From IMG/VR virus record IMGVR_UViG_3300027766_000002: 64,000 nucleotides of DNA. One strand, written 5' to 3'. The translations under genes and the position numbers were made by a program. The notes beneath the pieces were generated by a model. The model had not been told where the DNA came from. It did not search any database and worked only from the letters and a program-made list of their open reading frames with translations. The stretch is from a virus (Duplodnaviria; Heunggongvirae; Uroviricota; Caudoviricetes). Shown piece by piece: positions 10,380 to 55,984 of the stretch (positions are counted from its first letter, which is position 1; every line of letters starts with the position of its first letter).

Positions 10380-10462
10380 GTGATCTGAAACTGATCAACC
10401 GAACCGTCAAAGTGAAAAATCTGTAAGATAGGTATTTACCTACCTACTTATATCGATTATAG

Positions 10463-10740
10463 TCACTCTCGTTTTCGGCGGTGAGCGATTGTTTTACTTT
10501 TAAAATAAATGCAAACGACACTCAGTACCTGGCAGTAGCGTAACAGCCAAACACCAGCAGGGTCAGTCTCCAGCCCTGTTATCGAAATGGAGCAGACTGA
10601 GCGAGTCTGATTACGGAACGCAGAGACGATGGCCACGGCCACCCGACCGATGGGGTAACGAGATGGGTGGGGGTAATTCCGACATGAACACCCGGGTTTA
10701 AAGGCACTTCCGCCCATCTCGTTACGTCATTCCATATTAC
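10463..10740. ncRNA. Candidate structured non-coding RNA or structured DNA element
   Basis: GC-rich. Contains several perfect hairpins, including a 14-bp stem gtaacgagatgggtggg/ccgcccatctcgttac and cagactgagcgagtctg. No convincing ORF. Confidence 0.3.
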
Positions 10741-10821
10741 TTATGTCGTTTATTCTTGGGTTGAATAATCGTAGACGTAGCCCGGCTGGCATGGTTAGCC
10801 AGCACAAATTCAGGGACCGAT

Positions 10822-11031
10822 ATGCAAGACGTTGATGAGCTTAAGCGAGCTGCCGCAACACTCTTTGTCAAAGCTATTCAGCAGAATCGTGGTGATTACG
10901 GCTCCACGAGCACTGTAGAGGCGGTAAAGCGAGGGGGTTCGACGATGACAATAAGCCACAACGGAACTATATCGGCCTACAAAGATGGTGTGCTGAGAGT
11001 GAGAATGGGTAGCATTGTCGGTGATCTGTAA
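10822..11031 (+). CDS. Hypothetical small protein
   Basis: 69 aa ORF. Confidence 0.3.
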   Translation: MQDVDELKRAAATLFVKAIQQNRGDYGSTSTVEAVKRGGSTMTISHNGTISAYKDGVLRVRMGSIVGDL

Positions 11032-11160
11032 TGATTCCATACATCTCAGAGTTTAGATCCACACCACGCACCTAACCTTGGTGCTCGTGACAAGATTTTT
11101 TTAGCTTTGCAGTATCAACGCCCCTCGAAGGGCTACATATAAAATACAAAGGAAAAACAC

Positions 11161-11772
11161 ATGTCAGAAGTCAAAAAGGTTATCACCGCGTCCGACCGTT
11201 CAGCTAAAGGCGTTGTTAAAGCTGTTGCCGATCTGAGCAAGGTTGCAGTCGAGCTGACAGCTCTGGCGCAGTCTAACGTCAACCTGGCCGAAGAAATTGA
11301 GTTCAAGCAATCCCAGCTGGCCGACCTGGATAATCAGATCAACACTAAAGAGCGTGAAGGTGCTGCCCAGCTGCGTCTGCGTGTTATCGAAAACGAAGAC
11401 CGCGTACTGGCTGACCTGATGAAAGCTCGTGGCCTGGCGACCATCTCCGTTGCTGATCTGAACCTGCTGAACACTCGTGCAGTGAACGCTGAAGCAGGCA
11501 ATGAGCAGGCAGTTGAAGAAGCGCGTACCTCTGCATTCCGTCAGGCTGACTCTGCTGCCAAAGCTCAGATTGCTCAGCTGCAGGGCGATCACCGTGTTGA
11601 AATGGCTGAGCTGAACGCAAACAGCAAAGCGAAAGACAACCGCATCGAGTTCCTCGAAGCGCAGGTGACTCAGTTGCAGGGCGAAGTGAAAGCTGAACGT
11701 GACACTCGTCTGGAAATCGCTAAAGCGGAATCTAACCGCCAGGGCGTTACCGTAAACACCGGTAAGAACTAA
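11161..11772 (+). CDS. Hypothetical coiled-coil protein
   Basis: Preceded by AAAGGAAAAACACATG. 203 aa and strongly alpha-helical/coiled-coil. Confidence 0.55.
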   Translation: MSEVKKVITASDRSAKGVVKAVADLSKVAVELTALAQSNVNLAEEIEFKQSQLADLDNQINTKEREGAAQLRLRVIENEDRVLADLMKARGLATISVADLNLLNTRAVNAEAGNEQAVEEARTSAFRQADSAAKAQIAQLQGDHRVEMAELNANSKAKDNRIEFLEAQVTQLQGEVKAERDTRLEIAKAESNRQGVTVNTGKN

Positions 11773-11780
11773 GTTGCGTG

Positions 11781-11802
11781 TCTGTTCCCCTCCGGGGGAA
11801 CA
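11781..11802 (+). terminator. Rho-independent terminator
   Basis: gttcccctccgggggaac hairpin. Confidence 0.5.
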
Positions 11803-11953
11803 GCACATCGTAGAGCGGGTTGGGTTTATTTATTCACTTAAAGACTCCGCTAACAGTCCCTCAGCCCGCTCTACGCTGTGTACGCAGCAGATTATGTCTG
11901 CAATCGGTAGCTGACATCGTCGAACTCCAAACCTTACTTATAGCGCAAATACC

Positions 11954-11976
11954 AAAGGGGCTTCGGCCCCTTTTTT
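11954..11976 (+). terminator. Rho-independent terminator
   Basis: aggggcttcggcccc hairpin followed by TTTTTT. Confidence 0.55.
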
Positions 11977-11988
11977 GTTGAGGCAAAT

Positions 11989-12582
11989 ATGGCAAATATG
12001 AACGATTGGAATGCTTTTGATAGGTACAGAGCACAATTACGGGGCTATGAAGATCACGCCAATAATCGCTTCAGCACAAGGATGCCGGCCAGCTTAACGG
12101 AGGCATTTGAAAGGTCGATGATGAACAGTGATACCTCTTTCACTTACCAGCGTATCCAATACAAGAACACCATGCCTGGCCGGTTCATTCAGGTGATCGG
12201 AGATGGTAGAGAAATTCGACCACTGAGCTGTATGCAGTTACGCACAAACTTTCTCAGCAGCCGCGAGCGCTATAACGTTGCTCAAATGCCAATGATGACT
12301 ACCTCATATGAAGAAGAGCCATCAGACCCTCTCGTAAGCAGAGCGTTTAAAACCGTTGCGCTCTCTTCTTTCGTTACCATTTCAATGTCCACGCTGGATA
12401 GCAGAAGCCGTCACTTCACGCTCTACTTTGCAGACAAATTTTTAGACGGAGCTGTTAGCTTCAGCCCGATATTCTTTGAATCTAACGGCGCACGAGTGCC
12501 GGACAACGCACCGGCTGAAGAATATCTAACCTGGCCTCGTCGCACAGGCAGAAACGAGTTTCTGGCTCGATTTACAAGCTAA
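11989..12582 (+). CDS. Hypothetical protein
   Basis: 197 aa ORF. Confidence 0.45.
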   Translation: MANMNDWNAFDRYRAQLRGYEDHANNRFSTRMPASLTEAFERSMMNSDTSFTYQRIQYKNTMPGRFIQVIGDGREIRPLSCMQLRTNFLSSRERYNVAQMPMMTTSYEEEPSDPLVSRAFKTVALSSFVTISMSTLDSRSRHFTLYFADKFLDGAVSFSPIFFESNGARVPDNAPAEEYLTWPRRTGRNEFLARFTS

Positions 12583-12677
12583 GAATAATAGGTAGTGACC
12601 TACCAAATATTATTGGCTATTCTGGTCACGAATTTATTAGGCAATGGACGCCTACATACTCACGAAGGGAATCAAAA

Positions 12678-13166
12678 ATGTCAGAAGTTAAACTGCCAGA
12701 GTACCAAAGCATCAAGGTGGTTGGCGCTGCAAAAATCGCTTCAATCACCGGCACTGCAATCGGCCTGGATCTCCACAATAGCATTGTAGAGATTGAAGTT
12801 GGCTGCGCCTGGGTTGCTCGCCACCAACCAGAAGTCGGTGGCTACTTTGTTCGCTATGAAGACGGCTATGAGTCGTATTCACCGGCAGAAGCGTTTGAGA
12901 AAGGTTATCTGGCGCTCGCAGACGCAGGTTTCGCTGCTTCATTTGGCGTCTCGTTTGGTATCGCCATCGAGCTGCTTAAAGAGGGTGATCGTGTGGCTCG
13001 CAAGGGCTGGAACGGTAAAGGGATGTGGTTTGAGCTTCAACGCCCGGACGCTGACAGTGACATGACGCTCCCATACATCTATATGCGTACTGCAGACGGG
13101 CAGAACGTACCGTGGCTGGCCAGCCAAACCGATATGCTCAGTGAAGATTGGGTGATCGTGAAATGA
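12678..13166 (+). CDS. Hypothetical protein (DUF2829-like; a paralogue of 55985..56296)
   Basis: 162 aa. The C-terminal KGWNGKG…DW segment is shared with the ORF at 55985. Confidence 0.45.
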   Translation: MSEVKLPEYQSIKVVGAAKIASITGTAIGLDLHNSIVEIEVGCAWVARHQPEVGGYFVRYEDGYESYSPAEAFEKGYLALADAGFAASFGVSFGIAIELLKEGDRVARKGWNGKGMWFELQRPDADSDMTLPYIYMRTADGQNVPWLASQTDMLSEDWVIVK

Positions 13167-13621: not shown

Positions 13622-13763
13622 GTACATCGACATCCAGGTCGCCGGGATCGGTGCACCAGAGCTGAGTGAACTTGTTGGCCAGCCGGTAAGACAAGTGCCC
13701 CAGATCTTCGTTGATGACAAGCCGGTGGGCGGCTACACTCAGTTTTCAGCGATTAAGTTCTAA
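13521..13763 (+). CDS. Glutaredoxin (NrdH/Grx-like)
   Basis: CAYC active-site motif near the N-terminus and a thioredoxin-fold-like sequence (…VPQIFVDDKPVGGY…). Confidence 0.7.
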   Translation: MVKVKIYGKEQCAYCKNAKELAEQLQSQGKLTFEYIDIQVAGIGAPELSELVGQPVRQVPQIFVDDKPVGGYTQFSAIKF

Positions 13764-13767
13764 GACA

Positions 13768-16169: not shown

Positions 16170-17330
16170 ATGCTGACCCTAAAAAAAGAGGTTTCGCATA
16201 TGCGTAGTGAATTTGATTTGGCCAAGGCAGCAGAAAACTGTTCCGCAGAGACGATCGCGTTTCTGCAGACCGTTATCGACTCGCCGCTTGATCAGCTGGA
16301 AGATTTCAGTGATTCCGACCCGGTTTTCAGAAAAGCATTCATGCTTTTCACCCGGCTATCTTTGCTGGTGACTCGCCGCCGTCCCGAGCTTGGCGTCCAC
16401 TGCATTTTGATACACGTTCTGCCTAAAATTGGCGATCTCCCTCTGTCAAAAATCACCAAGGTGGTCATTAACCGGCTGACAAACCCGCTGATCGTGGAAG
16501 GTAAAATTGTTCAGGGTAAACGTGTCTTTTCCGTAATGAAGCAGTTCCTCGCTTGGTGTGTGTTCCAGGGTTATCTAGAGAACTCACCAGTTGGCGACAT
16601 TCCACTGAACAAAGTTGGTGGCTCAAACCCTAAGCCCAGGGAGCGCACGCTAACAGACGCTGAAATATGGGTGTTCTGGCATGTATGGGATTACTTCGAA
16701 GTTTGCGAGGTGACGCGCTGGGCTGCCAGATTGACGCTTGCTGCTGCTCGACGCCCTGACGAGATCCTACGTGCAAAATCCGCTGAGTTTGACCTCACCA
16801 ATAACATATGGAACCAGGGTCGTCGTAACAAGTCGAATCGAGACCACCGGTTGCCCATCAGCCCGATTATGAAGCTCTGTATCGAACGGCTGCTTGCCGC
16901 GGGTGAGGGTAGCGAATGGCTATGCCCATCTAACAAGAAAGCAGGGCGGCCGATGTCAAAGGTGGCCATCAGCCAATCTTTGCGCCGAATCCTCGAAACA
17001 CCAGAAATGCTGGCGGTTGAGCCGTTCACTCCACGTGATCTACGCAGGACTGCAAGGAGCTGTCTGGCAAGTTTGGATGTACCGAGTGATGTATCAAGAA
17101 AGGTTTTAAATCAAAGCCTTGAAGGTATAGACCGTGTGTACGACAGGCACGACTATATAGATCAGATGCAAGAAGCACTGTGCAAATACTCAGTATTTTT
17201 GTTTAATATAGTCGAAAGCGAGGGGGTGGAGGATTTGAGCCACAAATACAAAGGCGACCGTCTGGATCTATCAAACAGTCGCCTTGGACTTGGGGTCGTT
17301 AACTTTGGATCGCAGCAAGTATATCCTTGA
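16170..17330 (+). CDS. Tyrosine recombinase / integrase-family protein (the start may be the internal ATG near 16199)
   Basis: C-terminal catalytic region with ARRPDE…FTPRDLRRTARS…RVYDRHDY (R-[H/R]xxR-Y). Confidence 0.6.
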   Translation: MLTLKKEVSHMRSEFDLAKAAENCSAETIAFLQTVIDSPLDQLEDFSDSDPVFRKAFMLFTRLSLLVTRRRPELGVHCILIHVLPKIGDLPLSKITKVVINRLTNPLIVEGKIVQGKRVFSVMKQFLAWCVFQGYLENSPVGDIPLNKVGGSNPKPRERTLTDAEIWVFWHVWDYFEVCEVTRWAARLTLAAARRPDEILRAKSAEFDLTNNIWNQGRRNKSNRDHRLPISPIMKLCIERLLAAGEGSEWLCPSNKKAGRPMSKVAISQSLRRILETPEMLAVEPFTPRDLRRTARSCLASLDVPSDVSRKVLNQSLEGIDRVYDRHDYIDQMQEALCKYSVFLFNIVESEGVEDLSHKYKGDRLDLSNSRLGLGVVNFGSQQVYP

Positions 17331-17679
17331 GCTTTTCATCTGTTAGAGTGCCGGATGATTTTGTTTTGTCTCGTAAGGCATTGATTATCTGGCGCTCTTC
17401 GTCACTTAGACCAGGGAGGTTTTTCTTTATGAATTGGTGGATGACCGGGTATCGTTCTTCCAAAACCAGCATCATGAAGCGAGTCTCATCTGTGCCTAAA
17501 GCTTCAGCAAGAAGGGATACTTTTTCCAATGGCATCGGCAGACGGCCGGTTTTAATATTGGAGAGATTGTTTGCGTTTTCATAGCCAATCTCAGATGCGA
17601 TCTGAGTCTGCGATTTTGGGGATGTCAAAATAAGCCCCTCAATAAATGCCGAAATACGGTTACCTTTTTTAGCGGCCAT
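17299..17679 (-). CDS. XRE-family helix-turn-helix transcriptional regulator (candidate repressor)
   Basis: HTH segment QTQIASEIGYENANNLSNIKTGRLPMPLEKVSLLAEALG. 126 aa. Convergent with, and overlapping, the recombinase 3' end. Confidence 0.6.
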   Translation of the reverse strand: MAAKKGNRISAFIEGLILTSPKSQTQIASEIGYENANNLSNIKTGRLPMPLEKVSLLAEALGTDETRFMMLVLEERYPVIHQFIKKNLPGLSDEERQIINALRDKTKSSGTLTDEKLKDILAAIQS

Positions 17680-17932
17680 AATAGTTTTTTCCTGCTTATT
17701 TATGCGAAATAATTATCAATTACGAGGTGTCATTTGCACCATTGCCCTGAGTGTATTACCGGCTAGAAAGTAAGTAAAGGGTTATCCCTCCTTAATGATA
17801 AGTAACCCACTAACTATTCATCAAAGGCCCATACACCAAGGCTTAATGAGAATTATTTTTGATATAAAACCTTTGATTTTTGTTACATAGCGTATAAGAT
17901 GCCGCCTCGATAAATAAGAACTGTCCCAAAGG

Positions 17933-18151
17933 TTGTTTATGGATGATTTAATCGCCTCCTTGAAGGCACTTGGCGTAGGCATGATTATCGCCGTTCCTTA
18001 CCATTTAGTTTCGGACATTATCCTTCGCTGCAACGGTATCGACATTGACTGCGGAGATGACGCTGTCGCATGTTTTCACATCAGCATTGCGCAAATGAAG
18101 TACACCCTTGCCTGCACTGGCGAAACCAGCCTGGTCACACGTTTTCTTTAA
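17933..18151 (+). CDS. Hypothetical small protein
   Basis: 72 aa ORF downstream of the AT-rich divergent control region. Confidence 0.3.
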   Translation: MFMDDLIASLKALGVGMIIAVPYHLVSDIILRCNGIDIDCGDDAVACFHISIAQMKYTLACTGETSLVTRFL

Positions 18152-18283: not shown

Positions 18284-20578
18284 ATGAAAAATAAACAAAA
18301 AATTAGAAAAGAGGTTCTGACATTTCGCGAAAGTGTACGTAAAGTCGTTGTCATGCTTTCTGGTAAAGATATTCCTGTGGCGGAGCGTGGTAGCCGTGCA
18401 TACGTCGAATATAACAAGGATGGTAAGCCATGCATGGTAAATCTTCCTTCACTGCCAGATGATGCGACTGATGGCCTCATGAACGCGATCCGTGGCTTCC
18501 TTGACCACGAAGTCGCTCACCTCCTTTTCACCGACTCGAAACTGGCATTTAAGCTGCTCGATAAGAAAGACAGCCCAGCTTTTCACCTCTGGAATGCCGT
18601 AGAAGATACCTTCATTGAACGACGTATGGGTGAAGTTTTCTCTGGATCTAAACGCAACCTTGTCAATACGCAACGTCATGTAATTGAAAAACTTTTCGTT
18701 CCGAAAGTGGATGATGCACTAAAGGCTTTATCTCGTAACCCGCGAGAACTCTTTCTTAAGTTCCTGTTAATGCCAGCTTTACGCGCCTGGGCAGGACAAA
18801 CGCCTTTTGTTGAGTTCATGGAGCCGTATTGGGCTTATGTTCGCGATCCTGTATCAAAACTAGATAAAGCTGGTGTGCCGGCTGCTGTGCCAATGTTGAT
18901 GAGCACCGAAGACTGCATCAAGCTGGCAGGCCGAATTTCACTGGCTTTAAAGGAAGAAATGGAGAAACCGGAAGGTAAATCTGGCCATGGTGATTCGGAA
19001 GAAAATGATAAGGAAAATGATTCGCCTGATGATGTAGGTAGTGAACAACCTACTAAATCAAATGATGAATCTAATAGTGATAAGCCTGGTAGTGTCGATG
19101 AGACGCAGGAGGAAGAAGAGCCTGCTCCTGTAATTAATAGTAATGAAGATAATATAAAAGATAAGGAAGACGGCTCTGAATCAGTTCCCGACTCCAGCAA
19201 CGCTAATGACTCCCAGCCTGAAGATGGTGACGCTCACGAAGATGACGCCCCAGCAAAATCAGGTGATGGTGATGATATACCAGAAGGTGAAGAAGAATCT
19301 GAGCAGTCTGAGGGGTTTGGTGGTTTCGAGAGCGACTCGGACGACAATGATCCAGATAATGAGCAGCCTGAAAGTGGTTCGGGCGGTGCAGACGATACTG
19401 GTTCAGCGGCCAACTCAGATGACCAGCAAAGCACACCAGGTGATCTAGAAAGTGATGGTCGTCAGGAAGCCACCCAGGGCGATCTAAACGAAGAAGATGG
19501 CGGTACTGATGACATTCCATTGGACGCAGCGTTTAAGGCGCTGGAAGGCACTGAGGTGGCTCCAGAGCAGGGCATGGAGGAAGCGCTCAACGAGGTAATG
19601 GCCAACGAGCTGATAGGTGTGCCAAAAGGCTCATATCGCCCATATCAACGCTCATATGACTTTATTGGCCCGATTGATGATGTCGAGAACCATCTCCGCA
19701 AAACTCATAAAGCTTTTGGCCGCATCCATCTTAACCGTGGTTTAAAGAACTGGCGTATCGACGACGAAGGCACCAGTTTATTTGCCTCGAATGTCGAGCG
19801 TCGTCTCGCTGATGGATCGGCCTCAACACTGGCCAAAGACCTTGAACGTGCCATTGCGAGTCGTAACAAAGTCCAGTTCGTACCTGGTCAACGTCGTGGA
19901 AAAGTGCATAGCGCCAATTTGTACCGACTGTCTATGAACGATGACCGCGTATTCCGTCGCAAGGAAGACCATAAGGCAGTAAACGCTTGTGTGCAGCAGG
20001 TTATCGACTTGTCTGGCTCGATGCAGGGTTCGAAAATTTGCCTTGCACTGGCCTGCGCCTACACAATTTCTGACGCGCTCGATCGCATAAATGTTCCGAA
20101 CATCATTACCGGGTTTACAACTGCAGGCTGTGACATCGATGCAGCAAGGAAGATGGGTCGCGGCTACAACCGCTATGAATCATTGATGCTCCCCACTATC
20201 AAGGGTTGGCACGAACGAGCAAACACGCCCACCACACGCAAACGCTTAGGCTGCTTGTCAGAGAGATTCCCCCTTGAAGACAACATAGATGGTGAATCAA
20301 TTATGGCTTTAGCTCAGCACTTTGCTGGCCGCATTGAGGATAAGAAAATCATGCTTGTCATGAGTGACGGTGCACCAGCTGGAATCGGTCATGACTTCAG
20401 CGACCATCTTAAAGCTGTGGCGGAGTCAATTGAAGGCAGTGGTCTTATTGAACTAATGGGTATCGGCATTCTTACGGATGCTCCCAGCCGGTTCTACAAG
20501 AACCACGTTGAAGTCAAAAAGGTGGAAGACCTGGGTGCCACTGTCGTGAGGAAATTGTCTCAATTGATACTTGGCTAA
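18284..20578 (+). CDS. cobT: vWA-domain protein with a long acidic low-complexity linker (CobT-like)
   Basis: Start at the GGAAAAGCACATG motif. The C-terminal von Willebrand A domain carries a MIDAS motif VIDLSGSMQGS. The central ~170 aa is D/E/S-rich. It pairs with the downstream AAA+ ATPase. Confidence 0.55.
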   Translation: MKNKQKIRKEVLTFRESVRKVVVMLSGKDIPVAERGSRAYVEYNKDGKPCMVNLPSLPDDATDGLMNAIRGFLDHEVAHLLFTDSKLAFKLLDKKDSPAFHLWNAVEDTFIERRMGEVFSGSKRNLVNTQRHVIEKLFVPKVDDALKALSRNPRELFLKFLLMPALRAWAGQTPFVEFMEPYWAYVRDPVSKLDKAGVPAAVPMLMSTEDCIKLAGRISLALKEEMEKPEGKSGHGDSEENDKENDSPDDVGSEQPTKSNDESNSDKPGSVDETQEEEEPAPVINSNEDNIKDKEDGSESVPDSSNANDSQPEDGDAHEDDAPAKSGDGDDIPEGEEESEQSEGFGGFESDSDDNDPDNEQPESGSGGADDTGSAANSDDQQSTPGDLESDGRQEATQGDLNEEDGGTDDIPLDAAFKALEGTEVAPEQGMEEALNEVMANELIGVPKGSYRPYQRSYDFIGPIDDVENHLRKTHKAFGRIHLNRGLKNWRIDDEGTSLFASNVERRLADGSASTLAKDLERAIASRNKVQFVPGQRRGKVHSANLYRLSMNDDRVFRRKEDHKAVNACVQQVIDLSGSMQGSKICLALACAYTISDALDRINVPNIITGFTTAGCDIDAARKMGRGYNRYESLMLPTIKGWHERANTPTTRKRLGCLSERFPLEDNIDGESIMALAQHFAGRIEDKKIMLVMSDGAPAGIGHDFSDHLKAVAESIEGSGLIELMGIGILTDAPSRFYKNHVEVKKVEDLGATVVRKLSQLILG

Positions 20579-20675
20579 GTCGTGCCGATAAAGATAAGTA
20601 GGCAACTACTTATCTTTTTATCTTAAAATTATTACTATAAGCACCAGATAAACAAAAACGAGAAAGGAAAAGCAC

Positions 20676-21905: not shown

Positions 21906-22105
21906 GCAAAGGCTGCTTTGGTTCACTGATAGCAGCCTCTGAAACTAATCCCGTTTGCATGGCATGTTCCAGCAAGCGGGATTGCTTTGTTAAGGCACAA
22001 GAGACCGCTATCAAGATTTACGGGAAGTTCGCTGGCTTCCCAAACGACAAAATAAAAAAGACAAGTAAGGCAAAAGCACATGAAAGCATTAATGGTACGA
22101 ACTGA
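21902..22105 (+). CDS. Hypothetical small Cys-containing protein
   Basis: ATGA overlap with cobS. 67 aa. Confidence 0.3.
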   Translation: MSKGCFGSLIAASETNPVCMACSSKRDCFVKAQETAIKIYGKFAGFPNDKIKKTSKAKAHESINGTN

Positions 22106-24437
22106 CTTCTCCCTGGGTGAGTCGTCTTTGAAGGCAGAGCGCGCCGTAGAGAAAGCCCGCGAAATGGGTTACTCGTCGGTGATCTCCGCTGACAGCATGA
22201 ATCTGGCATCCGTAATCCCCTTGCAGATGGCGGCTGGTGACGATGTTGCGGTCATTTGTGGTGTGAAGCTTAACCTGGTTGACGATCCTACATACGAGCA
22301 CCGCGCTCGACTTGCGAAGGAGTCTAAAGGATGTATGGAATCATTAACGCGCGCGCGTAACTACAGCTTCACGGCGCTAATCAAGAACGAGCAGGGCTAT
22401 GTCGATCTCTGCGAACTGATGACGCTGGCAAACACACGCGAGCAGTTTTATCACGTTCCCCGTCTTGAGCTGGCGCAGCTGCTGGCTACGTTCGCCAAAG
22501 GCAACATCATCCTGCTGACCTCGGACATGGGAAGCGTATTCCAGCGCCCGGACTTCGCGAAGATTATCGCCCAGCTGGTTCACGCTGGCGGCCGTGAGAA
22601 CTTTTACTGCGCCGTTTATCCGATTGCTACCCCCCTCTATGACCAGCTGAATAGCAAATCGCTCAAGGTGGCCAGTGCTCTTAAGATCGAGCCGGTGGCG
22701 TTCTACCCTGCTTACTACGAGGCTCCCACTGACGCTGACATCAAAGACATCGCGCATATGGTGCTGAACAACATCAAAATAGACCAGCTGCACCGTATGC
22801 GAATCCCGTATCAACGTGACAATGGCGTTAATGATCGCCGCCACTTACTCCAGCTATTGAAGGAGTTTGCGGTGCGGATGGGTGTCAACGTCACGCCAGC
22901 AATGGTCTCAACAACTCAGGACGCGATCATTGATGCGTGTACATGGCGCTGGCACCCGCTGGAGCCCGCTTTACCAACCATGGCAGATGATGAGCCAGCC
23001 ACATTGCGTAAACTCGCTGTAGAGGGGCTGAGGAAGCGTCTTAGCACCAAAGAGTTCGGCTATGCGCCACCAGCCACAATGCACCGTGATTATGTTGAGC
23101 GTCTGAAGTACGAACTTGATGTTTTAACCCGCCTTGGCTTCTGCGGCTACTTCCTCATGGTTCACGACCTGATGAATTACGCTCGCGGCGCCGGGATTCC
23201 TGTTGGGCCTGGTCGCGGTTCATCCGCTGGCTCTCTTGTCGCCTGGTGCGTGGGGATCACAAACGTAGACCCTATTCGCCATGGATTGCTGTTCGAACGT
23301 TTCATTAACCCTGAACGTCTCGACTTGCCCGATGCTGATCTGGACTTTAGCCAGGCACGTCGCCACGAGGTCATTGAGTACCTGGGTGAGCGTTACGGGG
23401 AGGATTACGTCGCTGGCATTCCCAACTTCACATACCTCGGTGCAGCTTCAGCACTGCGCGACACCGCACGTATCTTTGGCGTGGATTCAGCGGATATGGC
23501 GGTATCGAAAGACCTGCGCTTTGTCGATGACGATTCACTGTCACTCGAAGAGATGCGCGAAGAGCTTTCCAGCCTGGACAAATACGCAGCCAAATACCCG
23601 GACGCATTTAACGCGGCCACTAAACTGCAAAGTCTCATGCGCGGATTCGGCCGCCACGCAGCAGGCATGATCGTAGCCGGTGTGAAGCTGACGGAGCGCA
23701 CACCGGTAGAGCGACGCGGGGATGCGCGTGTAATCGCTTTTGACAAGCGTTACTGCGAATCCATGGGATTGATTAAGTTGGACGTGCTCGGCCTCGCTAC
23801 GCTCGATTTGCTGGCTTATGCGCAGGAATACGTGAAAGAAGCCACGGGCAGCGTGATTGATCTCGATGCAATTCCACTAACTGACAAAAAGGTTCTTGAT
23901 GGCTTTGCCGGTGGCCACACCCAGGGCGTGTTCCAGCTTGAATCAGGTTCGATGCGTAAGCTGCTAAAGGATCTGGGCGGCGGCATTGATCCGATGAGCT
24001 TTGAAACAGTTGTCGCCACGACAGCATTATTCCGACCTGGCCCGATCGAATCTGGAATGTTGGACAGCTACGTTTCGGTGGCCAAAGGCTTCAAAGAGGC
24101 TGATTCCATCCACCAGGTGCTCGATGAGCTTACCTCTGAGACCAATGGGGTAATTCTCTATCAGGAACAAACCATGAAGGCCACGCAGCTGCTGGCCGGC
24201 TTCACGCTCGCGGAAGCTGATGGCGTCCGTAAAGCGATCGGTAAAAAAGACATGGAGAAGATGAAGAAGGTCGGTAACCAGTTTATCGAGCAAGCCCAGG
24301 CTGGCTGGATAGAGGTGAAGTTGGAAGACGGAACCAATCGCCAGTTCCACCGCGCGGAGCACTTCAAATGTGCCGATGGCAAGCTGCGAACCATCGAAGA
24401 AGCAATGCACGATGGCGCCGAAGTTCTGGGTATCTAA
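22080..24437 (+). CDS. dnaE: DNA polymerase III alpha subunit (DnaE), N-terminal about 785 aa (PHP, palm, thumb, most of the fingers)
   Basis: GFCGYFLMVHDLMNYARGAGIPVGPGRGSSAGSLVAW…LLFERFINPERLDLPDADLDF matches the E. coli DnaE catalytic core. It ends at an in-frame TAA, 24 codons before the next in-frame dnaE ORF. Confidence 0.85.
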   Translation: MKALMVRTDFSLGESSLKAERAVEKAREMGYSSVISADSMNLASVIPLQMAAGDDVAVICGVKLNLVDDPTYEHRARLAKESKGCMESLTRARNYSFTALIKNEQGYVDLCELMTLANTREQFYHVPRLELAQLLATFAKGNIILLTSDMGSVFQRPDFAKIIAQLVHAGGRENFYCAVYPIATPLYDQLNSKSLKVASALKIEPVAFYPAYYEAPTDADIKDIAHMVLNNIKIDQLHRMRIPYQRDNGVNDRRHLLQLLKEFAVRMGVNVTPAMVSTTQDAIIDACTWRWHPLEPALPTMADDEPATLRKLAVEGLRKRLSTKEFGYAPPATMHRDYVERLKYELDVLTRLGFCGYFLMVHDLMNYARGAGIPVGPGRGSSAGSLVAWCVGITNVDPIRHGLLFERFINPERLDLPDADLDFSQARRHEVIEYLGERYGEDYVAGIPNFTYLGAASALRDTARIFGVDSADMAVSKDLRFVDDDSLSLEEMREELSSLDKYAAKYPDAFNAATKLQSLMRGFGRHAAGMIVAGVKLTERTPVERRGDARVIAFDKRYCESMGLIKLDVLGLATLDLLAYAQEYVKEATGSVIDLDAIPLTDKKVLDGFAGGHTQGVFQLESGSMRKLLKDLGGGIDPMSFETVVATTALFRPGPIESGMLDSYVSVAKGFKEADSIHQVLDELTSETNGVILYQEQTMKATQLLAGFTLAEADGVRKAIGKKDMEKMKKVGNQFIEQAQAGWIEVKLEDGTNRQFHRAEHFKCADGKLRTIEEAMHDGAEVLGI

Positions 24438-24509: not shown

Positions 24510-25679
24510 ATGAAAGTTTTAGAGACGATTTCCACGAAGCCCGGACTAAGTGATAGCAAAGCAAAAGAGATCTGGGAAGCGTTTGAAAAAAACGGGGCGT
24601 ACCAGTTCAACAAATCTCACTCAGTGGCTTACTCGCTGATTAGCTATCAGTCGATGTTCATGAAAACGCACTACCCTGCCCAATTCTTCGCAGCAGCGCT
24701 GACTATTTTGGGTGATGACAAGCATCAGGGGCTGGTCAAGGACGCGCTGAGCTTTGGCATTCGCATCTTGCCACCAGATGTAAACATCTCAACCAACCGC
24801 ATTGAGATCCGTCAGATGGAAGATGGTACGCAAGTGCTGTATGCGCCCTTCTCAGCTGTTAAAGGATGCTCAGAGAATGGATGCCAGGCAATCATGCGCG
24901 CCCGGGCGAAAGTGGGAGGCCATTTCACAGACATCATGCAGTTTGAAGAGGCGGTTGAGAAGCGCGCCTGCAACAGCCGTGTACGTGACTCTCTCGATCG
25001 TGTCGGTGCATTTGCCAGCATCATTCCCGGCAGCGTACCAGCTACCTCAGAAGAACGACGCCGCGACCAGGCGGAGCTGATGGGTAATCTGGTGATCGAT
25101 GCGGTAAAAGCGACACGCCAGTTTGAAATGAACCCGAAACGCCAGGCTGAAGTAAACGTGCTGATGACGAATATGGCCGCTGAAATGGGGCTGGGTGATG
25201 AGCTTATCCGTCCGAGCATCGGCATCAAACCACGCTTGATGATCATCCTCGACAACGCCAACGGTAACGATGGCAAAACCGGATACTTCATGGAGAACGG
25301 TTATGACGACTTCAAGGCGAAGTTGCTGGTTGCCGGCGATCTTAAAATGGGCGATTTGTACATTACCGGCGTTTGCAAGAAGGTGAAGGACAAAGAAAAG
25401 GACTACACCAAAGACGAGTTAGGCCAGTTTAACGAGTTCATCAAAGCAGAGGTAGCTTTGGTACGACCAACGTACATTCTTACTTGCGGCGCCAAGTCCA
25501 CCAGCCTGTTTAACAACAAATCGAAGCCATCAGATCTTGTTGGCCGCAAAGAGTATCTGCCGGAGTTGGATGTCACGGTATTCTATGGCTTTAATCCCAA
25601 CATTCTCCACTTCCGCCCAGAAGAAGGCGAAAAGCTGGAGTTGATCCTCGCTGACGTTGCCGAGGCAGTAAATTCGTGA
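24510..25679 (+). CDS. dnaE: DNA polymerase III alpha subunit (DnaE), C-terminal about 389 aa, separately initiated
   Basis: …FEKNGAYQFNKSHSVAYSLISYQSMFMKTHYPAQFFAAAL matches E. coli DnaE around residue 870. It has its own AAGAGG Shine-Dalgarno 5 nt before the ATG. It is in the same frame as the upstream ORF. Confidence 0.8.
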   Translation: MKVLETISTKPGLSDSKAKEIWEAFEKNGAYQFNKSHSVAYSLISYQSMFMKTHYPAQFFAAALTILGDDKHQGLVKDALSFGIRILPPDVNISTNRIEIRQMEDGTQVLYAPFSAVKGCSENGCQAIMRARAKVGGHFTDIMQFEEAVEKRACNSRVRDSLDRVGAFASIIPGSVPATSEERRRDQAELMGNLVIDAVKATRQFEMNPKRQAEVNVLMTNMAAEMGLGDELIRPSIGIKPRLMIILDNANGNDGKTGYFMENGYDDFKAKLLVAGDLKMGDLYITGVCKKVKDKEKDYTKDELGQFNEFIKAEVALVRPTYILTCGAKSTSLFNNKSKPSDLVGRKEYLPELDVTVFYGFNPNILHFRPEEGEKLELILADVAEAVNS

Positions 25680-27177: not shown

Positions 27178-27369
27178 AAAGCTTTCCTTGGGTTAATGTG
27201 TGTCAACGACCGAAACTCTACACAAGGTTAATACAGATAAGCAAGACAATTCTTTTCTTCAATCTTGCTGTTAAGGATCTTTAATTTAGAGAGTTTCAAT
27301 AAGAGCCTCAGCTGTAAATTTAAGTCTTAGGAACTTTGTGTGTTAGAATCAAATACCAAAAATAACTAA

Positions 27370-27813
27370 ATGACTATTACGCACATGAACAATATCCTTG
27401 ATCAAATTATCATCGACCTTGAGTTTAATCGCGATGACCTTGAGGCGGTCTGGCAACGACAACCAGTGCTACTCATGCAGTACGGTGCAAGACTGGCGCA
27501 AGCTGAAAGACAAGTGGCTGATGCTAAGCGCGGCCTCGATGCTATTGAGGCCAAACTTTATGACTCGCACCGTAAAGACTTGAGTATGAACGGCATCAAG
27601 TTCAACGAATCAATCCTCGATGCCAAGGTAAAGACCAGCGTCAGCTACCTATCTCATCGACAAAAGCTGGATGACGCTCGTTACCTGGCTGACATGTACA
27701 AACATGCCGTTGCGGCCTTCAACCACCGAAAAGACATGATCGTGCAGGCATCTAAGCTCGCCATTATTGAAATCGAACGCATGGATGCCGAACGTTTTAA
27801 TCGTTCCTCCTGA
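27370..27813 (+). CDS. Hypothetical alpha-helical protein
   Basis: 147 aa ORF. Confidence 0.45.
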   Translation: MTITHMNNILDQIIIDLEFNRDDLEAVWQRQPVLLMQYGARLAQAERQVADAKRGLDAIEAKLYDSHRKDLSMNGIKFNESILDAKVKTSVSYLSHRQKLDDARYLADMYKHAVAAFNHRKDMIVQASKLAIIEIERMDAERFNRSS

Positions 27814-27934
27814 TACCCTATTTTTATATCTGGATTATAGCTAGTTAACTAGCTATTATGCACTTGCTCGTTAGCGAGTCACGACTGCCCAAAGTGCAAC
27901 GCACCCTCGGCCAAAAACAATAATGGAGAAACAC

Positions 27935-28939
27935 ATGTCATCAGCATTAATGAACCTTCTGAGCAAAGCTCGCGGCGACATCGCAGCTAAACGTGGTAAC
28001 AACGTCGATATGGCTCGCCTGAAGGATGGCGATAACTACCTGCGTCTGTTCCCAAACAAAGACGATCCTGACGGCGTCTTCTATCAAACGTGGGGTATGC
28101 ACTTCGTTAAGTACCAGAACGACGAAGGCAAAGAAGCAACCACCGCTTACGTGTGTGATCAGCACACCCATGGTCGTGCTTGCCAGCTGTGCGAAATGGT
28201 GATGGAAGGTAAAGCTCGTCACAAAGGCAACAAAGCAATGGAAGACCGCATTCAGGCAATGCGCGCCACTCCACGCTATCTGGTTAACGGCGTACTTTCT
28301 GCTCGTGAAGATTTCGCTGATGCGAAAGAAACCCAGCTGATTGAACTGCCAGCAACCGTGTTCGATGACATTCTGAAAGTTATCGGCGAAGACCTTTCCG
28401 ATGAAATTGGTAACCCGCTGAGCAAAACTGAAGGCTATGCGTTCTGCATTACCCGTACCGGTTCTGGTCGCGACACCAAATACAGCGTGTCGCCTAAGCG
28501 TAAAGTCTTCAAAGGCAACATCGAAGACAAGTTCTGGAACAAGCAGCATGACCTGATTGCTTTCGCAAACCAGGCTGACGAAACCAAATTGCTGGCTACC
28601 ACGCGTCATATGAGCCGTCAGATTGGAATCGCTGCACCTTCTGCGATTGCCGCTGTTAAATCAACAACCAACTCAGCAGCAGCACTGCCAGGCTTCGGCT
28701 CCATCACCGGCCACGACGACGCCCCAGCGACTACTCACGGTGCAGCAGCTGTTGCGCGTGAAGAGACCCCGGCGCCATCGTCCATCGTTGATGAAGAGGT
28801 TGCTCGTGCGGTTGAAGCTGAGTTCGTGCCAGAAGCTGAAAAAGTTGCTGAGCCAGTGGCGGCAACGCCAGCGGCAGAAGCACCTGCAGCAGCAGACCCG
28901 GCACTGGATTCACTTCTGGCTGAGCTAGAAGGTCTGTAA
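27935..28939 (+). CDS. Putative gp32-like single-stranded DNA-binding protein with an acidic Ala/Pro/Glu-rich C-terminal tail
   Basis: Preceded by ATGGAGAAACACATG. It has a basic N-terminus and an LRLFP segment like gp32 LKLD…IRFLP. An H/C cluster YVCDQHTHGRACQLC has gp32-like Zn-ligand spacing. The C-terminal tail is acidic. Confidence 0.5.
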   Translation: MSSALMNLLSKARGDIAAKRGNNVDMARLKDGDNYLRLFPNKDDPDGVFYQTWGMHFVKYQNDEGKEATTAYVCDQHTHGRACQLCEMVMEGKARHKGNKAMEDRIQAMRATPRYLVNGVLSAREDFADAKETQLIELPATVFDDILKVIGEDLSDEIGNPLSKTEGYAFCITRTGSGRDTKYSVSPKRKVFKGNIEDKFWNKQHDLIAFANQADETKLLATTRHMSRQIGIAAPSAIAAVKSTTNSAAALPGFGSITGHDDAPATTHGAAAVAREETPAPSSIVDEEVARAVEAEFVPEAEKVAEPVAATPAAEAPAAADPALDSLLAELEGL

Positions 28940-31315: not shown

Positions 31316-31346
31316 GAGGGGTGCTAACGCACCCCTTCTTTTTTGA
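31316..31346 (+). terminator. Rho-independent terminator
   Basis: gggtgctaacgcaccc hairpin followed by TTCTTTTTT. Confidence 0.6.
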
Positions 31347-31406
31347 TTGCAATTAGGTAGGTAACTACCTATTTTATATAAGCACTATAAAACATCGGAA
31401 AAACAC

Positions 31407-31595
31407 ATGATTAAGTTCTACACCTTCACAATTGGAGTGATTGCATCTGCCTTAGCGGTGTATCGATTCATTGTGCCAGCACTGTTCTCACTGAGTGATG
31501 ATTTCGCCATGGTTTTGGCCGTTGTTATCGCTCTTTCTTATCCGGTCGCCCTGGTGACCATCTCTAAAAAAGTATGGAAACGCAAAAAGAAATGA
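31407..31595 (+). CDS. Small membrane protein (NfeD-like partner, tentative)
   Basis: 62 aa with two hydrophobic helices. Preceded by GGAAAAACACATG. Its stop overlaps the next gene's start. Confidence 0.4.
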   Translation: MIKFYTFTIGVIASALAVYRFIVPALFSLSDDFAMVLAVVIALSYPVALVTISKKVWKRKKK

Positions 31596-34593: not shown

Positions 34594-34653
34594 TCGCCTA
34601 TTTAAGTCAAATATAATTAAGTAACCAACAACTTATAATAAGGGTATAAACAC

Positions 34654-34923: not shown

Positions 34924-35124
34924 CGCTTTCCTTACATTTCAAAAATAGGTTACTATCTACCTATCTTATGGAGTTCGCATGACAGTAGCTTTGCAATTAA
35001 CCTCTCTCCTTCTGGTACTTTTATGCCGTCAGATGAAGAAAGCCTTCGAGCCAATGCCCGGGCGCGTTTATTACCCCTTCATGCTCAGCACCGCATTATT
35101 CATGTTCCTGTCGCCGGTGCTGAA

Positions 35125-38387: not shown

Positions 38388-38607
38388 TATGATCCCTATT
38401 ATGCTGTGTAAAACATCATCTTAGAGCGCCTTTGCTATGGAGTTAAGGAATTTAAAACTTGTCCCTCCAGATAGTAGGTAGTTAGCTACTTATAAATATT
38501 GCATAATAGCCAGCCTGCGAACCAACCCAATAGCCTATAGCTCTGAATTGATGGCCTATTCAGTGTTGGTAACATTGCGTTGAATTTATAACAAGCTGGA
38601 AGAACAC

Positions 38608-43124: not shown

Positions 43125-43163
43125 TTTATCGTTGATAGGTAGTCAACTACCTACTATCATGAC

Positions 43164-43189
43164 GGCCACTATATGTAGTGGCCTTTTTA
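43164..43189 (+). terminator. Hairpin + T-run immediately upstream of the nrdA RBS (terminator or attenuator)
   Basis: ggccactatatgtagtggcc followed by TTTTTA. Confidence 0.4.
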
Positions 43190-47800: not shown

Positions 47801-47886
47801 GCTGTTAAGTTATAGGGTTGCTTTTATGGCGCTCTTTTTTTACTTATTATAAGATAGGTAATCACCTACCTATCAAAGAAACCAAG

Positions 47887-52934: not shown

Positions 52935-53101
52935 AGAGACCATCTAAATTCGCCCACGGGAAGGACGCTGTGGGCTTAACGCAAATAAACAATACAAACC
53001 CATCCACTTCGCGAGAAATGCTTCCCTCGCGCTTCCCTGAACGTATTTTTCATGCTGATATAGTCAAACAAAAACAATACCACTCTGGGGTAGAGGGAAT
53101 G

Positions 53102-53494: not shown

Positions 53495-53582
53495 CATAAG
53501 GGCGCAAAGCGCCCTTATTACATTGCTAACGAAATAATAATTTGCGATCATATAGGTAGTTAGCTACCTACTAAGGGTTATC

Positions 53583-54197
53583 ATGATTGCCGCAGAGAAG
53601 ATTAAAAAGCGCGAGCGTGACAAAGAGCTGCGCGACCTGTGGCGCACTCCGCGATGGCTATTTGAGGCCATTCAGAAATACCTTGGCATCCAGTTTGACG
53701 TTGACGTGGCTTGTGATGCCGGCAATGCCCTACTGCCTAACTTTATCGGCAAGGAAAGAGACGCGCTTGTTTGTGATTGGGGTGAACCTGGCACAAATGC
53801 TTTTCTCAATCCGCCGTATTCCAAGATTAGACCCTGGATAGAGGCAGCTATGCGTGAGCAGCGTCGCGGCGTATCGACAGTAATGTTGATCCCCCAATCA
53901 CTTGATACCGCCTGGTATGAGTTCGCCACAGAATCAGCTAATGAGACGGTGGTGCTGACCGGTGGGCGTGTAGCCTTTCTGGAACCAGGCGTGGAGCTGG
54001 GGATGGTAGAAGTACGTGAAAACCCTGGTGGGAGTATGCTGGTGGTCTTCCGCGGCCACTGCCACCAGGCTGGGCACATTCTTCGCAAGGTTTCACTGCC
54101 AGTAATGAAAGAGCTGGGTGGTTATGATCCTTCAAAAGCAATCAGAAAGAAGCGCCCCTCCAAGAAGAAACAACCCACGTTGGAGGTGGCAGCTTAG
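53583..54197 (+). CDS. dam: Phage Dam-type DNA N6-adenine methyltransferase
   Basis: WRTPRWLFEAI…DVACD…NPPYS motifs typical of the small phage N6-adenine MTase family. Confidence 0.65.
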   Translation: MIAAEKIKKRERDKELRDLWRTPRWLFEAIQKYLGIQFDVDVACDAGNALLPNFIGKERDALVCDWGEPGTNAFLNPPYSKIRPWIEAAMREQRRGVSTVMLIPQSLDTAWYEFATESANETVVLTGGRVAFLEPGVELGMVEVRENPGGSMLVVFRGHCHQAGHILRKVSLPVMKELGGYDPSKAIRKKRPSKKKQPTLEVAA

Positions 54198-54380
54198 CAC
54201 CACCACAAACCCAACTTATCCAACCTGCTTCCGTATATTTATATACTGGTTAGTTATTTATTTATAGAGAAGCAGGTCGGTCGTAAGCAACCCACCAGCC
54301 CTTGTCATACCTAGGTTTTTTGGTAGATCACCTTCCCAGAAAAATTATGATCGCTGGACATTAATCAAAAGGAATTACAC

Positions 54381-54614
54381 ATGGCACACCCTACCAACGT
54401 AGTGGCACTGATCGACACTGATTTTCTCGCCAATGCACGTCAGCTACTCAAAAGCCGCGATCAGTCATTCACGCTTTATGAGTGGGCGCTTAAGGCGATC
54501 CGCGGTGGACAGCATACCAATGAAGTTGAGCAGCTGATCGGCGAGTTAATCAACGAAGTTCATGGGCTGAATGTTCAACTTCACGGCCGCACTGAGCAGA
54601 AAGCCACCGCTTAA
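54381..54614 (+). CDS. Hypothetical protein
   Basis: Preceded by AAAGGAATTACACATG. 77 aa. Confidence 0.4.
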   Translation: MAHPTNVVALIDTDFLANARQLLKSRDQSFTLYEWALKAIRGGQHTNEVEQLIGELINEVHGLNVQLHGRTEQKATA

Positions 54615-54649
54615 AATAGTAACCTTATTAAATAGTCATTTAGCTATTT

Positions 54650-55150
54650 ACCGTCTGATCTGCCAGTGCTAACATCCCGCCGTCATTTCTCGGAATGGCT
54701 CGGCAGATGGGTGGAGGATTATGGCGCTGGCGTCTGCTTAAAGGAACCTGTTACCAGCGATCGAACCGGGACGCGAAAGCCGCTCGGGGAGAGGGAGAAT
54801 CAAAGCAGGAGAGAAAAGGAGTCACTGTAGGTTGTCGAAACCAGACGAGTTCCAAGAGGTTGGTGTCTGGTGTTCCCCTCCTACAGTGAGGAAGGATCTT
54901 GATTCTGGGGTATTGCTGCCCACAACCTTCCTAACCGGGACTGGCATTGGATCTCGGTCATAGTTTCTGGCTATGATTTGCTCAGGTTAGCGTGGGATTT
55001 TCAACCCTGCTTCCCTGGGTGAATTATATCCAGAACACACAACCTCTCACTCCGTTCGAGGGAAACCTCACATTCGTTCGGTTTCTCACTTCTAAACCCA
55101 TTCTGGGTATTATCTTATATTTTCAAATAGATACTAATTGCGCGCGAGAA
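54650..55150. ncRNA. Candidate structured non-coding RNA region (about 450 nt, GC-rich, multiple hairpins)
   Basis: There is no credible ORF. Stems include ggagtcactgtagg/cctacagtga, ccagac…gtctgg, ggaagg/ccttcc and atctgcc/ggcagat. Confidence 0.3.
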
Positions 55151-55220
55151 ATTTGCGAATTTCATTGATCTATACCATTAATCATATATGATTTGGTTAA
55201 TGGAGATTATGGAGGTTTGC

Positions 55221-55811
55221 ATGAAAAAGTTAGATATTAGTGATCACATCTATACCAGACTGGCTAAGCACGCAGTCGGCTTTGAAACCCCTGAAAGCGT
55301 AATCGAACGACTGCTAGATGCTTATGAGATTGTTCCGGGGCAGAAACCCAAATTGACTTTCATACCTGAAAATGAAGAAGAATTTAAAGCAAGACTAGTT
55401 GAATCTCGTCATGCTTACGTCGAACTCAGAATGGAAGATGGCACGATTCAGGCCGGTGAATGGAGCGCTCATTCATTCAAAGATAGCTCTAACTTAAGAG
55501 CGAATATCTGGTCAGGTTATCTTCGAAATTGGTCGAAGAGGGGAATTGTTGCAGCAACTTTTGAGGTCGTAATGTCCCCGAACAGTGAAGACCAAATTGT
55601 ACAATCCGCCAAATTCGAAAAGTACGTAATTAACCAACACGCCAGTGGCTCCATTTCCGTTAAGGTAAATGATATGGATGCAAGACCAGTTAAACCAGTG
55701 CTGAGGAAGATAGCTGAGGCACTTGATGTCAGCATTGTCAATTCAAACAACAATGATCTTAATACACGCCAGCTTGGGGCATCGATTATCAAAGCTCTTA
55801 ACCCCTTATAA
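55221..55811 (+). CDS. Hypothetical protein (AT-rich)
   Basis: GGAGG Shine-Dalgarno before the ATG at 55221. Low GC. Followed by a terminator at 55801-55822. Confidence 0.45.
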   Translation: MKKLDISDHIYTRLAKHAVGFETPESVIERLLDAYEIVPGQKPKLTFIPENEEEFKARLVESRHAYVELRMEDGTIQAGEWSAHSFKDSSNLRANIWSGYLRNWSKRGIVAATFEVVMSPNSEDQIVQSAKFEKYVINQHASGSISVKVNDMDARPVKPVLRKIAEALDVSIVNSNNNDLNTRQLGASIIKALNPL

Positions 55812-55984
55812 TGGGGTTTTTTAACAATCAATAAATAAGTAGTTGACTACCTACAATCAAAATATTAAATTGACCGTGTCAGGACGACGACGGCGCTGGT
55901 TTAGCGCTTGCTCCATGGACGGAGCACAAACACGGCTGGGTTCGCCCAGCCGTAACTCTCTGTGTCTCAAGAAGGGATTCGTTT

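Follow-up and report, generated by a model that had tools for sequence, protein, structure and literature searches.

Dispersed 20-bp palindromes of an SSU5/pHCM2-type phage-plasmid as candidate operators of a Cro/CI-type repressor

The stretch of DNA analysed here (the window, 64,000 nucleotides of the Caudoviricetes record IMGVR_UViG_3300027766_000002 in IMG/VR) carries a family of short palindromes lying mostly between genes, and the question that it raises is which molecule recognises these sequences, and with what consequence for the genes that follow them. A preliminary description of the window had read them as operators of a dimeric DNA-binding protein encoded by the element, naming the XRE-like gene at 17299..17679 as an example, or alternatively as a specialised promoter class. 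With moderate confidence, drawn from sequence comparison and structural modelling, we favour the view that the palindromes serve as operators for a Cro/CI-type repressor which the element itself encodes, probably the XRE-like protein, and which would silence the lytic genes in the plasmid state; we infer that this protein is the binder, that repression is the effect and that the action takes place in lysogeny.

Megablast identified the window as a member of the SSU5/pHCM2 family of phage-plasmids, with a 109-kb plasmid of Cronobacter sp. JZ38 as the nearest record (92% coverage of a 20-kb probe, 93.7% identity), and 611 further plasmid records from Klebsiella, Enterobacter, Yersinia, Escherichia and Salmonella matching at lower identity. 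Phage-plasmids of this type are common in Salmonella, Klebsiella, E. coli, Enterobacter, Cronobacter and Yersinia, and some of them bear resistance genes. The window corresponds to that half of the element which carries functions of plasmid maintenance, replication and nucleotide metabolism, and its genes include parA, helicase, primase, ligase, int, XRE, CobT/CobS-like genes, DNA polymerase III (Pol III) alpha and a gp32-like single-stranded DNA-binding protein (SSB), as well as repB, SbcCD-like genes, nrdAB, thyA, a methylase gene and umuC.

A palindrome of two independent half-sites

The eleven main sites of the preliminary description were all found as given, and they share a common register, the 20-bp dyad ATAGGTAG-NNNN-CTACCTAY, with 20-nt starts at 10428, 12588, 20594, 27837, 31353, 34945, 38474, 43135, 47854, 53552 and 55835. 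The pattern TAGGTA-N4-8-TACCTA, which had been proposed for a search, matched the window 5 times against 0.00 in 100 shuffles, and a position weight matrix (PWM) trained on the 11 main sites, with a threshold of 12 bits and hits counted per strand, returned 39 strand hits against a shuffle mean of 0.67 (maximum 4). Among the copies that had been listed as degenerate, 2141-2188 (2166-2185, plus a weaker 2133-2152) and 5651-5673 (5653-5672) proved to be good sites, whereas 6541-6562 (6542) and 54615-54652 (54628) are weak, at about 11-12 bits, and 27350-27372 has no match to the motif. Three sites had been overlooked, 17798-17817, 19034-19053 and the weak but conserved 34617-34636, and the window holds 15 good sites.

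The intergenic placement described earlier was borne out for 14 of these 15 sites, though intergenic DNA makes up 10.6% of the window; the automatic count is 13 of 15 (p = 2e-11), with a greedy thyA open reading frame (ORF) that begins too early. The sole clearly coding site, GTAGGTAGTGAACAACCTAC at 19034..19053, lies inside the CobT-like ORF, scores 21.3 PWM bits and has counterparts at 23647 in JZ38 and 43661 in SSU5. Other details had to be revised: a position just after a terminator holds at 31353, 47854 and 55835 but not at 43135, where the hairpin is downstream of the motif, and the distance to the start codon, given as 10-60 nt, actually ranges from 1 to 130 nt.

A logo built from 173 semi-independent sites of the family gave the consensus ATARGTAnnT followed by AnnTACYTAT, symmetric about the central TA and flanked by A/T-rich sequence, with no T-tract after the motif. 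The two arms are independent of each other: complementary positions numbered 158 against 158.7 expected (p = 0.59) and 152 against 149.1 (p = 0.25), where the expectation was obtained by shuffling right arms among sites, and A·C mismatches between arms are about as common as G·T. The palindromes thus display neither the compensatory pairing nor the G·U tolerance of hairpins, and the lack of arm covariation points to a double-stranded DNA site for a symmetric dimer. These sequence data support a palindrome made of two independently conserved half-sites that would be contacted by a symmetric protein dimer on duplex DNA; the earlier dimeric-operator interpretation gains computational support both from these half-sites and from the overlap with gene-directed sigma-70-like promoters presented below.

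That the palindromes act instead as RNA or single-strand hairpins, whether as terminators, processing sites, translational operators or targets of an FljA-like protein, is very improbable. Several sites abut a Shine-Dalgarno sequence or an ATG, a terminator scan flags three of them, and the family encodes an FljA-like protein (PF03614), all of which would suit such a role. However, the conserved feature is the sequence and not the pairing, the T-tract of a terminator is not conserved, and where the predicted start is inside or downstream of the motif, a hairpin would not be transcribed whole; by contrast, a neighbouring RNA candidate (10448-10815, described below) clearly covaries in the same kind of test. 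The hairpin interpretation was rejected on the absence of arm covariation, and the FljA-like protein was dropped as a binder, as the sites behave as duplex dimer sites and no link to its gene was found.

The palindromes recur across relatives. The whole JZ38 plasmid (109 kb) carries about 25 sites, in the early and structural regions alike; the structural-region copies lie over the terminase stop codon, in the 3' end of the portal gene, 8 nt past the major capsid gene and before the tail-fibre gene, and the scan of this plasmid found no copy ahead of parA, repB, umuC or the minus-strand gene cluster. The genes that follow the sites are all rightward, except at 17798. In SSU5, whose proteins are typically 40-80% identical, the element is found at the same junctions as ATARGTAAGTACTTACYTAT, and Cyrano likewise carries it at the same gene junctions. 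Furthermore, among 80 IMG/VR contigs retrieved via the SbcD-like protein (70-99% identity), the sites ahead of SbcD, nrdA, thyA and a small ORF are present throughout, the first of them at about 134 nt upstream of SbcD in 80/80 loci. Searching IMG/VR with the bare pattern ATAGGTA-N6-TACCTAT was uninformative, yielding mostly single chance matches in unrelated contigs.

In alignments of the upstream regions, conservation begins at the motif or peaks on it; upstream of SbcD, different lineages have unrelated sequence to the left of the motif and become alike roughly where the motif begins. Breakpoints of homology between the window and SSU5 fall near the sites at 10428, 2166, 53552 and 38474, a suggestive arrangement but one inseparable from the general loss of homology in intergenic DNA. 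A further, doubtful possibility is that the roughly 25 repressor-bound sites, placed at the boundaries of nearly all transcription units, are also roadblocks or insulators similar to stoperators; plasmid genes and morons could then be active amid viral modules that are shut down. The shared 20-bp sequences at module edges could likewise be points at which SSU5-type phage-plasmids recombine cassettes, and several alignments show inter-lineage homology starting at the motif or within a few nucleotides of it.

Predicted promoters at the palindromes

Promoter predictions are associated with the sites: a promoter score of at least 9.5 was reached at 44% of 41 sites against 1.8% of random positions, and the hexamers on either side fit the gene strand better at 31 sites and the other strand at 7 (p = 1.4e-4), a comparison unbiased by the palindrome because it adds equally to both strands. 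Outside the sites, sigma-70-like matches are if anything depleted. At nrdA, the operator site ATAGGTAGTCAACTACCTAC (43135..43154) occupies the spacer of a predicted plus-strand promoter, TTGATA-N17-TATCAT at 43132..43160, with 10/12 hexamer matches. Upstream of this gene, TTGATA-N17-TAnnAT is kept in 21 diverged lineages with the palindrome filling the spacer, and transcription is predicted to start within the 5' arm of a hairpin that is conserved and followed by a T-run; judging from the sequence, this hairpin would terminate read-through from upstream and would not form in transcripts begun at the nrdA promoter.

The hairpin itself, GGCCACTATATGTAGTGGCC at 43164-43183 with its T-run, separates the nrdA promoter from the nrdA ATG in all lineages and reads as a terminator. 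Its core, CACTATATGTAGTG, also resembles an NrdR box; if this box is real, the phage nrdAB genes would also be under host NrdR control.

At thyA, the motif is immediately preceded by a TAAAAT, TATAAT or TATAAG hexamer and followed by the Shine-Dalgarno sequence and the start codon, so that an operator there would cover the start site; in the window, ATAGGTAATCACCTACCTAT (47854..47873) lies 13 nt ahead of the thyA ATG (47887, a start taken from the JZ38 annotation) with the -10-like TATAAG directly upstream. The site GTAGGTAGTTAGCTACTTAT (38474..38493), 114 nt upstream of the SbcD-like gene in the window, belongs to a junction where a conserved extended -10, TTTTGyCATAAT, comes after the motif. 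The operator site ATAGGTTACTATCTACCTAT (34945..34964) has counterparts in relatives, and in SSU5-like lineages sites of this type have TTTACA-N17-TAGTAT with the -10 at the motif centre and the ATG 1 nt past the motif, an arrangement that hints at a leaderless message. Two sites lie near the right end of the series: ATAGGTAGTTAGCTACCTAC (53552..53571), 11 nt ahead of the ATG of the N6-adenine methyltransferase gene, with the promoter-like TTGCTA-N17-GATCAT upstream, and ATAAGTAGTTGACTACCTAC (55835..55854), which is past a terminator and overlaps the promoter-like TTGACT-N17-TAAATT (55843-55871).

The leftmost good site, ATAACTAACCAGCTACCTAC (2166..2185), has a degenerate left arm and scores 19.6 PWM bits; the ATG of the gene 2187..2924 is 1 nt downstream, the promoter-like TTTAAA-N17-TATCAT lies upstream at 2127-2155, and the orthologous sites are at 6242 in JZ38 and 33600 in SSU5. 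It is followed by ATAAGTAGCTAACCACCAAT (5653..5672; 19.4/19.7 bits), 9 nt past the primase stop and orthologous to JZ38 9719, after which comes a -10 hexamer, TATAAT, at motif positions 28-33. The remaining sites are ATAGGTAGTGACCTACCAAA (12588..12607), 5 nt past a stop codon and 70 nt ahead of the gene at 12678; ATAAGTAGGCAACTACTTAT (20594..20613), between the CobT-like and CobS-like genes; ATAGCTAGTTAACTAGCTAT (27837..27856), upstream of the gp32-like SSB gene (Pfam gp32 match); TTAGGTAGGTAACTACCTAT (31353..31372), after the terminator 31316-31337 and 34 nt ahead of the gene at 31407; and the weak TTAAGTAACCAACAACTTAT (34617..34636; 14.8 bits), retained in the close relatives L126, L128, L129 and L197.

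The operator site ATAGGTATTTACCTACCTAC (10428..10447) overlaps the promoter-like TTTACC-N17-TATAGT (10435-10463), and SSU5 DNA homology begins at 10425, the left edge of this motif. Directly downstream lies a region of about 370 nt on the plus strand (10448-10815), conserved across the family, which this promoter-like element would drive. No gene is annotated in this region in JZ38, SSU5 or Cyrano, nor do its substitutions follow a codon periodicity. Its consensus fold has 71 pairs, with 98.5% of cells paired, and 20 of these pairs are changed on both sides, compared with 9.1 ± 2.0 in shuffles (0/500 reach the observed value); slid controls gave no more than 4. The plus strand has invariant G·U pairs, which favour it as the structured strand. 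No Rfam 15 family matched, and tRNA genes come next in SSU5 and Cyrano. The region could be a new non-coding RNA of phage-plasmids or part of an R-loop-type origin.

Taking the sites together, the motif varies in position relative to the -35, spacer, -10 and start site, and the best -10 hexamer begins anywhere from -19 to +40 relative to the motif. This variable distance argues for an operator rather than for an activator site or a special promoter element, and, as judged from prediction and cross-lineage conservation, the sites overlap core promoter elements in the manner of operators in Cro/CI systems. The specialised promoter class offered as an alternative in the preliminary description is accordingly less well supported, as the motif holds no fixed position relative to the -10.

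We regard as unlikely a related explanation, in which the sites bind a phage-encoded activator or define a phage promoter class like the Lpa late promoters of P1, with the dimer recruiting RNA polymerase to promoters of poor -35 during lytic growth. Many sites without a good -35 are flanked only by a -10-like hexamer, as this explanation would have it, and P1, also a phage-plasmid, has 11 late promoters with an Lpa-bound 9-bp inverted repeat (PMC10695390). Canonical sigma-70 matches are scarce as well, falling below shuffled sequence within 20001-60000 of the window (11 against 19.9 ± 5.1, and 13 against 19.6 ± 4.1), where most of the plausible promoters are those at the palindromes. However, besides the unfixed distance to the -10, the nrdA motif sits in a 17-bp spacer between good hexamers, the position of a repressor; early and late genes are both served; the best candidate binder is expressed in lysogens while flanking genes are silent; and the same motif lies over the start region of the XRE promoter. 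A fixed promoter element of the P1 Lpa kind was rejected on the spacing (-19 to +40), the good -35 of nrdA and the several gene classes served.

The XRE-like gene as candidate binder

The gene given as an example in the preliminary description remains the best candidate for the binder, on account of its modelled fold, its place in a conserved module, the motif at its own promoter, the pairing of its recognition helix with the motif core, and its expression in lysogens. It encodes a 126-amino acid protein on the minus strand (17299..17679), and an AlphaFold2 model built on 29 homologues (predicted local distance difference test, pLDDT, 81) has an N-terminal five-helix domain with a helix-turn-helix of the Cro/CI type. 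The N-terminal ~65 residues superpose on 434 Cro and C.AhdI with a root-mean-square deviation (rmsd) of 1.9 Å and 1.5 Å, respectively, and also on 434 repressor, C.Esp1396I and lambda repressor; TM-scores to target are 0.6-0.8 over the five, and 0.7-0.8 with rmsd of 1.5-1.9 Å for C.AhdI, 434 Cro and 434 repressor.

The protein is the orthologue of Cyrano CYRAN_45, annotated as 'putative repressor, HTH DNA binding domain protein', and Cyrano has the same arrangement as the window, int-XRE, a divergent 70-amino acid ORF and CobT. CYRAN_45 is among the prophage genes expressed in lysogens, at about 10-fold over background (PMC9928086). The divergent ORF (17939..18151, plus strand), in the 'cro position', adjoins the XRE gene in almost all lineages and had no family match in profile searches. 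Among 80 loci retrieved via the CobS-like protein, the module of int-XRE and divergent ORF is found in nearly all of those with enough flank. Conversely, SSU5 (L004/L005) and a near-identical IMG/VR contig (L332) lack exactly int and XRE (window 16170-17679), yet SSU5 keeps the sites; it also has a gene annotated as of the antirepressor family. SSU5 is described as virulent (PMC5427195), and the absence of the int-XRE module may explain this virulence.

In at least nine XRE types, TTTACA-N16-TAATAT is followed directly by GGTAAGTRCTTACC ahead of the XRE gene; this sequence, which corresponds to the central 14 bp of the dispersed motif, lies over the predicted XRE start, and in the P0049 lineage the full 20-mer is found at the XRE promoter. 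The gene therefore shows the operator-like sequence at its own promoter and the divergent arrangement that characterise Cro/CI genes. In the window, ATAAGTAACCCACTAACTAT (17798..17817) lies between the XRE gene and the divergent small ORF, with 1 mismatch to the family pattern, and is the only site of the window with a better promoter on the minus strand, facing the XRE gene. This promoter-like sequence, TTGATG-N18-TATCAT (17824-17795), has the motif in its spacer and is tentative because its -35 is not conserved in JZ38 or L256. Furthermore, a Photorhabdus element with a 46%-identical XRE protein and a different gene order carries, within 18.6 kb, three sites that depart from the pattern at no more than 1 position, and one of the three lies in the intergenic region next to its XRE gene. 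A peptide-pattern search of species-representative genomes returned no XRE relatives.

The recognition helix of the XRE protein varies along with the motif core: helix ENANNLSNIKTGR of the window lineage pairs with the core G8...A12 C13, helix KNANNLSLIKSGK, KN(A/P)NNLSLIKSGK, with A8...C12 T13, and helix EKANNLSMIKSGK with AAT..ATT. In the P0049 lineage, which has an unusual recognition helix, the sites seem to be shifted toward TATGTA half-sites, as judged from only six sites. This pairing of helix and core is consistent with, rather than decisive for, the XRE protein as the binder.

An improbable alternative assigns a similar dispersed role to another binder, either a protein of the element (the 70-amino acid ORF, the 217-amino acid minus-strand phrog_1513 protein or a ParB-like protein) or a host factor. 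It can draw on the failure of sequence profiles to recognise the XRE protein, on several conserved core proteins without annotation, on the retention of sites in SSU5 in the absence of XRE, and on the two ParB-N domain proteins that the family encodes. However, the motif or its core is present at the XRE promoter in every lineage examined, the core changes in step with the recognition helix of XRE, lineage-specific cores in the same host genera would be left unexplained by a host factor, and Pfam and PHROGs searches revealed no DNA-binding domain in the other candidates, returning nothing useful for the conserved minus-strand proteins as alternative regulators.

Under the favoured assignment to the XRE protein, each operator would consist of two 10-bp half-sites, ATARGTAnnT, bound by a symmetric XRE dimer, and would overlap or abut the sigma-70 promoter core (-35, spacer, -10 or start) heading a rightward lytic unit. 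In the window, these units would include the replication genes, nrdAB, thyA, the methylase gene and the SbcCD-like genes; outside it, they would include genes for packaging, the head and the tail fibre. While the element lives as a plasmid prophage, repressor bound to about 25 dispersed promoters would obstruct RNA polymerase there, keeping a viral programme of about 100 kb silent, while maintenance genes without an operator would stay on and the repressor would limit its own promoter. At a few sites with no apparent promoter, for example the post-capsid one, 20594 and 27837, the repressor could act as a roadblock.

Several findings weigh against the XRE-repressor proposal. Profile searches of Pfam, NCBIfam and PDB sequences did not recognise the XRE protein as a helix-turn-helix protein; that assignment comes entirely from the model, with weak Foldseek E-values (0.02-0.1). 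The protein has no recognisable cleavage domain, which leaves unexplained the route by which ciprofloxacin induces Cyrano (PMC9928086). The site near XRE in the window lineage is 119 nt from the start codon, with the non-conserved -35 mentioned above, and no convincing promoter was found at some sites, for example 20594, 27837 and the post-capsid site, which is directly before a terminator. The covariation of helix and core involves only three or four lineages, and these have also diverged furthest overall, so that shared phylogeny could explain it. The sites could also be bound, alone or jointly with the XRE protein, by the product of the divergent 70-amino acid ORF or by an unannotated core protein.

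If correct, the proposal defines a testable circuit of one small repressor gene, a defined 20-bp operator and a predicted regulon of about 25 promoters, and it would enable immunity and induction experiments, the prediction of hetero-immunity classes from recognition helix and motif core, and promoter annotation in the family. Our literature search, whose reach did not extend to the main 2018 comparative paper (Gilcrease & Casjens), returned no description of the motif or of a lysis-lysogeny or immunity circuit for the family.

Other features and known systems

Further observations concern other genes and repeats. The product of 27923-28939, called a 'regulator' by RefSeq in the JZ38 plasmid, is a T4 gp32-like SSB (Pfam gp32, E = 4e-61) and no transcription-factor candidate. 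The Pol III alpha gene is split in the window into 22080-24437 (785 amino acids) and 24510-25679 (389 amino acids); it is one ORF of about 1172 amino acids in SSU5 and L336, the JZ38 gene table has a gap there, and the split could be due to a frameshift or stop, to a pseudogene or to an intervening element. The conserved FljA-like protein ('repressor of phase-1 flagellin', PF03614, E = 1e-61) is encoded outside the window, at JZ38 plasmid 76638-77165 on the minus strand (L002:26638-27165), and has two repeats that appear Sm-like by eye. FljA blocks translation of fliC mRNA (PMC2652032), and the plasmid-encoded protein may silence host flagellin translation. Lastly, an unrelated palindrome, AAACAA-N-TTGTTT, has 11 copies in SSU5 (L004/L005) and could mark iterons or a partition site.

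Among known systems, the C1 regulon of P1 consists of one repressor with many dispersed operators; C1, a larger protein that does not belong to the Cro/CI type, acts on an asymmetric 17-mer. As in P1, a plasmid prophage is present in which a single repressor would silence many dispersed lytic promoters while plasmid functions stay on, and many dispersed copies lie at separate lytic operons (about 25 in JZ38, 15 in the window). Unlike in P1, the sites are 20-bp palindromes and their candidate binder is a 126-amino acid Cro/CI-like protein, so that operator form and modelled fold set the two systems apart; judged from these same two features, the asymmetric 17-bp operator and the C1-family repressor are absent here.

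The stoperators bound by gp71 of L5 and other Cluster A phages are 13-bp asymmetric sites set in one orientation relative to transcription. The palindromes resemble them in having two to three dozen copies genome-wide, in short intergenic gaps near starts and stops of both early and late regions, and in including some sites without an obvious promoter, which could be roadblocks; they differ in being symmetric, with no orientation of that kind, and most of them overlap a promoter. Lambdoid phages have their operators in clusters at OL and OR and control the remainder of the genome by antitermination. The likeness to the CI-Cro systems of lambda, 434 and P22 lies in the modelled helix-turn-helix fold, the two-fold symmetric operator, the divergent small ORF and the operator over the candidate's own promoter, whereas here the operators are spread over about 100 kb and no S24 cleavage domain was found. 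The KorB protein of RK2/IncP plasmids, a homologue of ParB, can also exert its effect at a distance. The KorA-KorB system shares with the present one palindromic operators at many plasmid promoters, in differing positions relative to the promoter; unlike for RK2 KorB, no link was found here between the family's ParB-like proteins and the motif.

The Lpa late promoters of P1, which has about 45 transcription units (PMC10695390), are comparable in their inverted repeat near the -10 and in belonging to a phage-plasmid with many small transcription units. Unlike the Lpa repeat, which has a fixed position and serves late genes only, the palindromes vary in position and lie ahead of replication, nucleotide-metabolism and structural genes. 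In kind, therefore, the system appears to be analogous to the dispersed-operator strategy of P1 C1 or L5, which would here be carried out with a lambdoid-like protein of the Cro/CI type and a palindromic operator.

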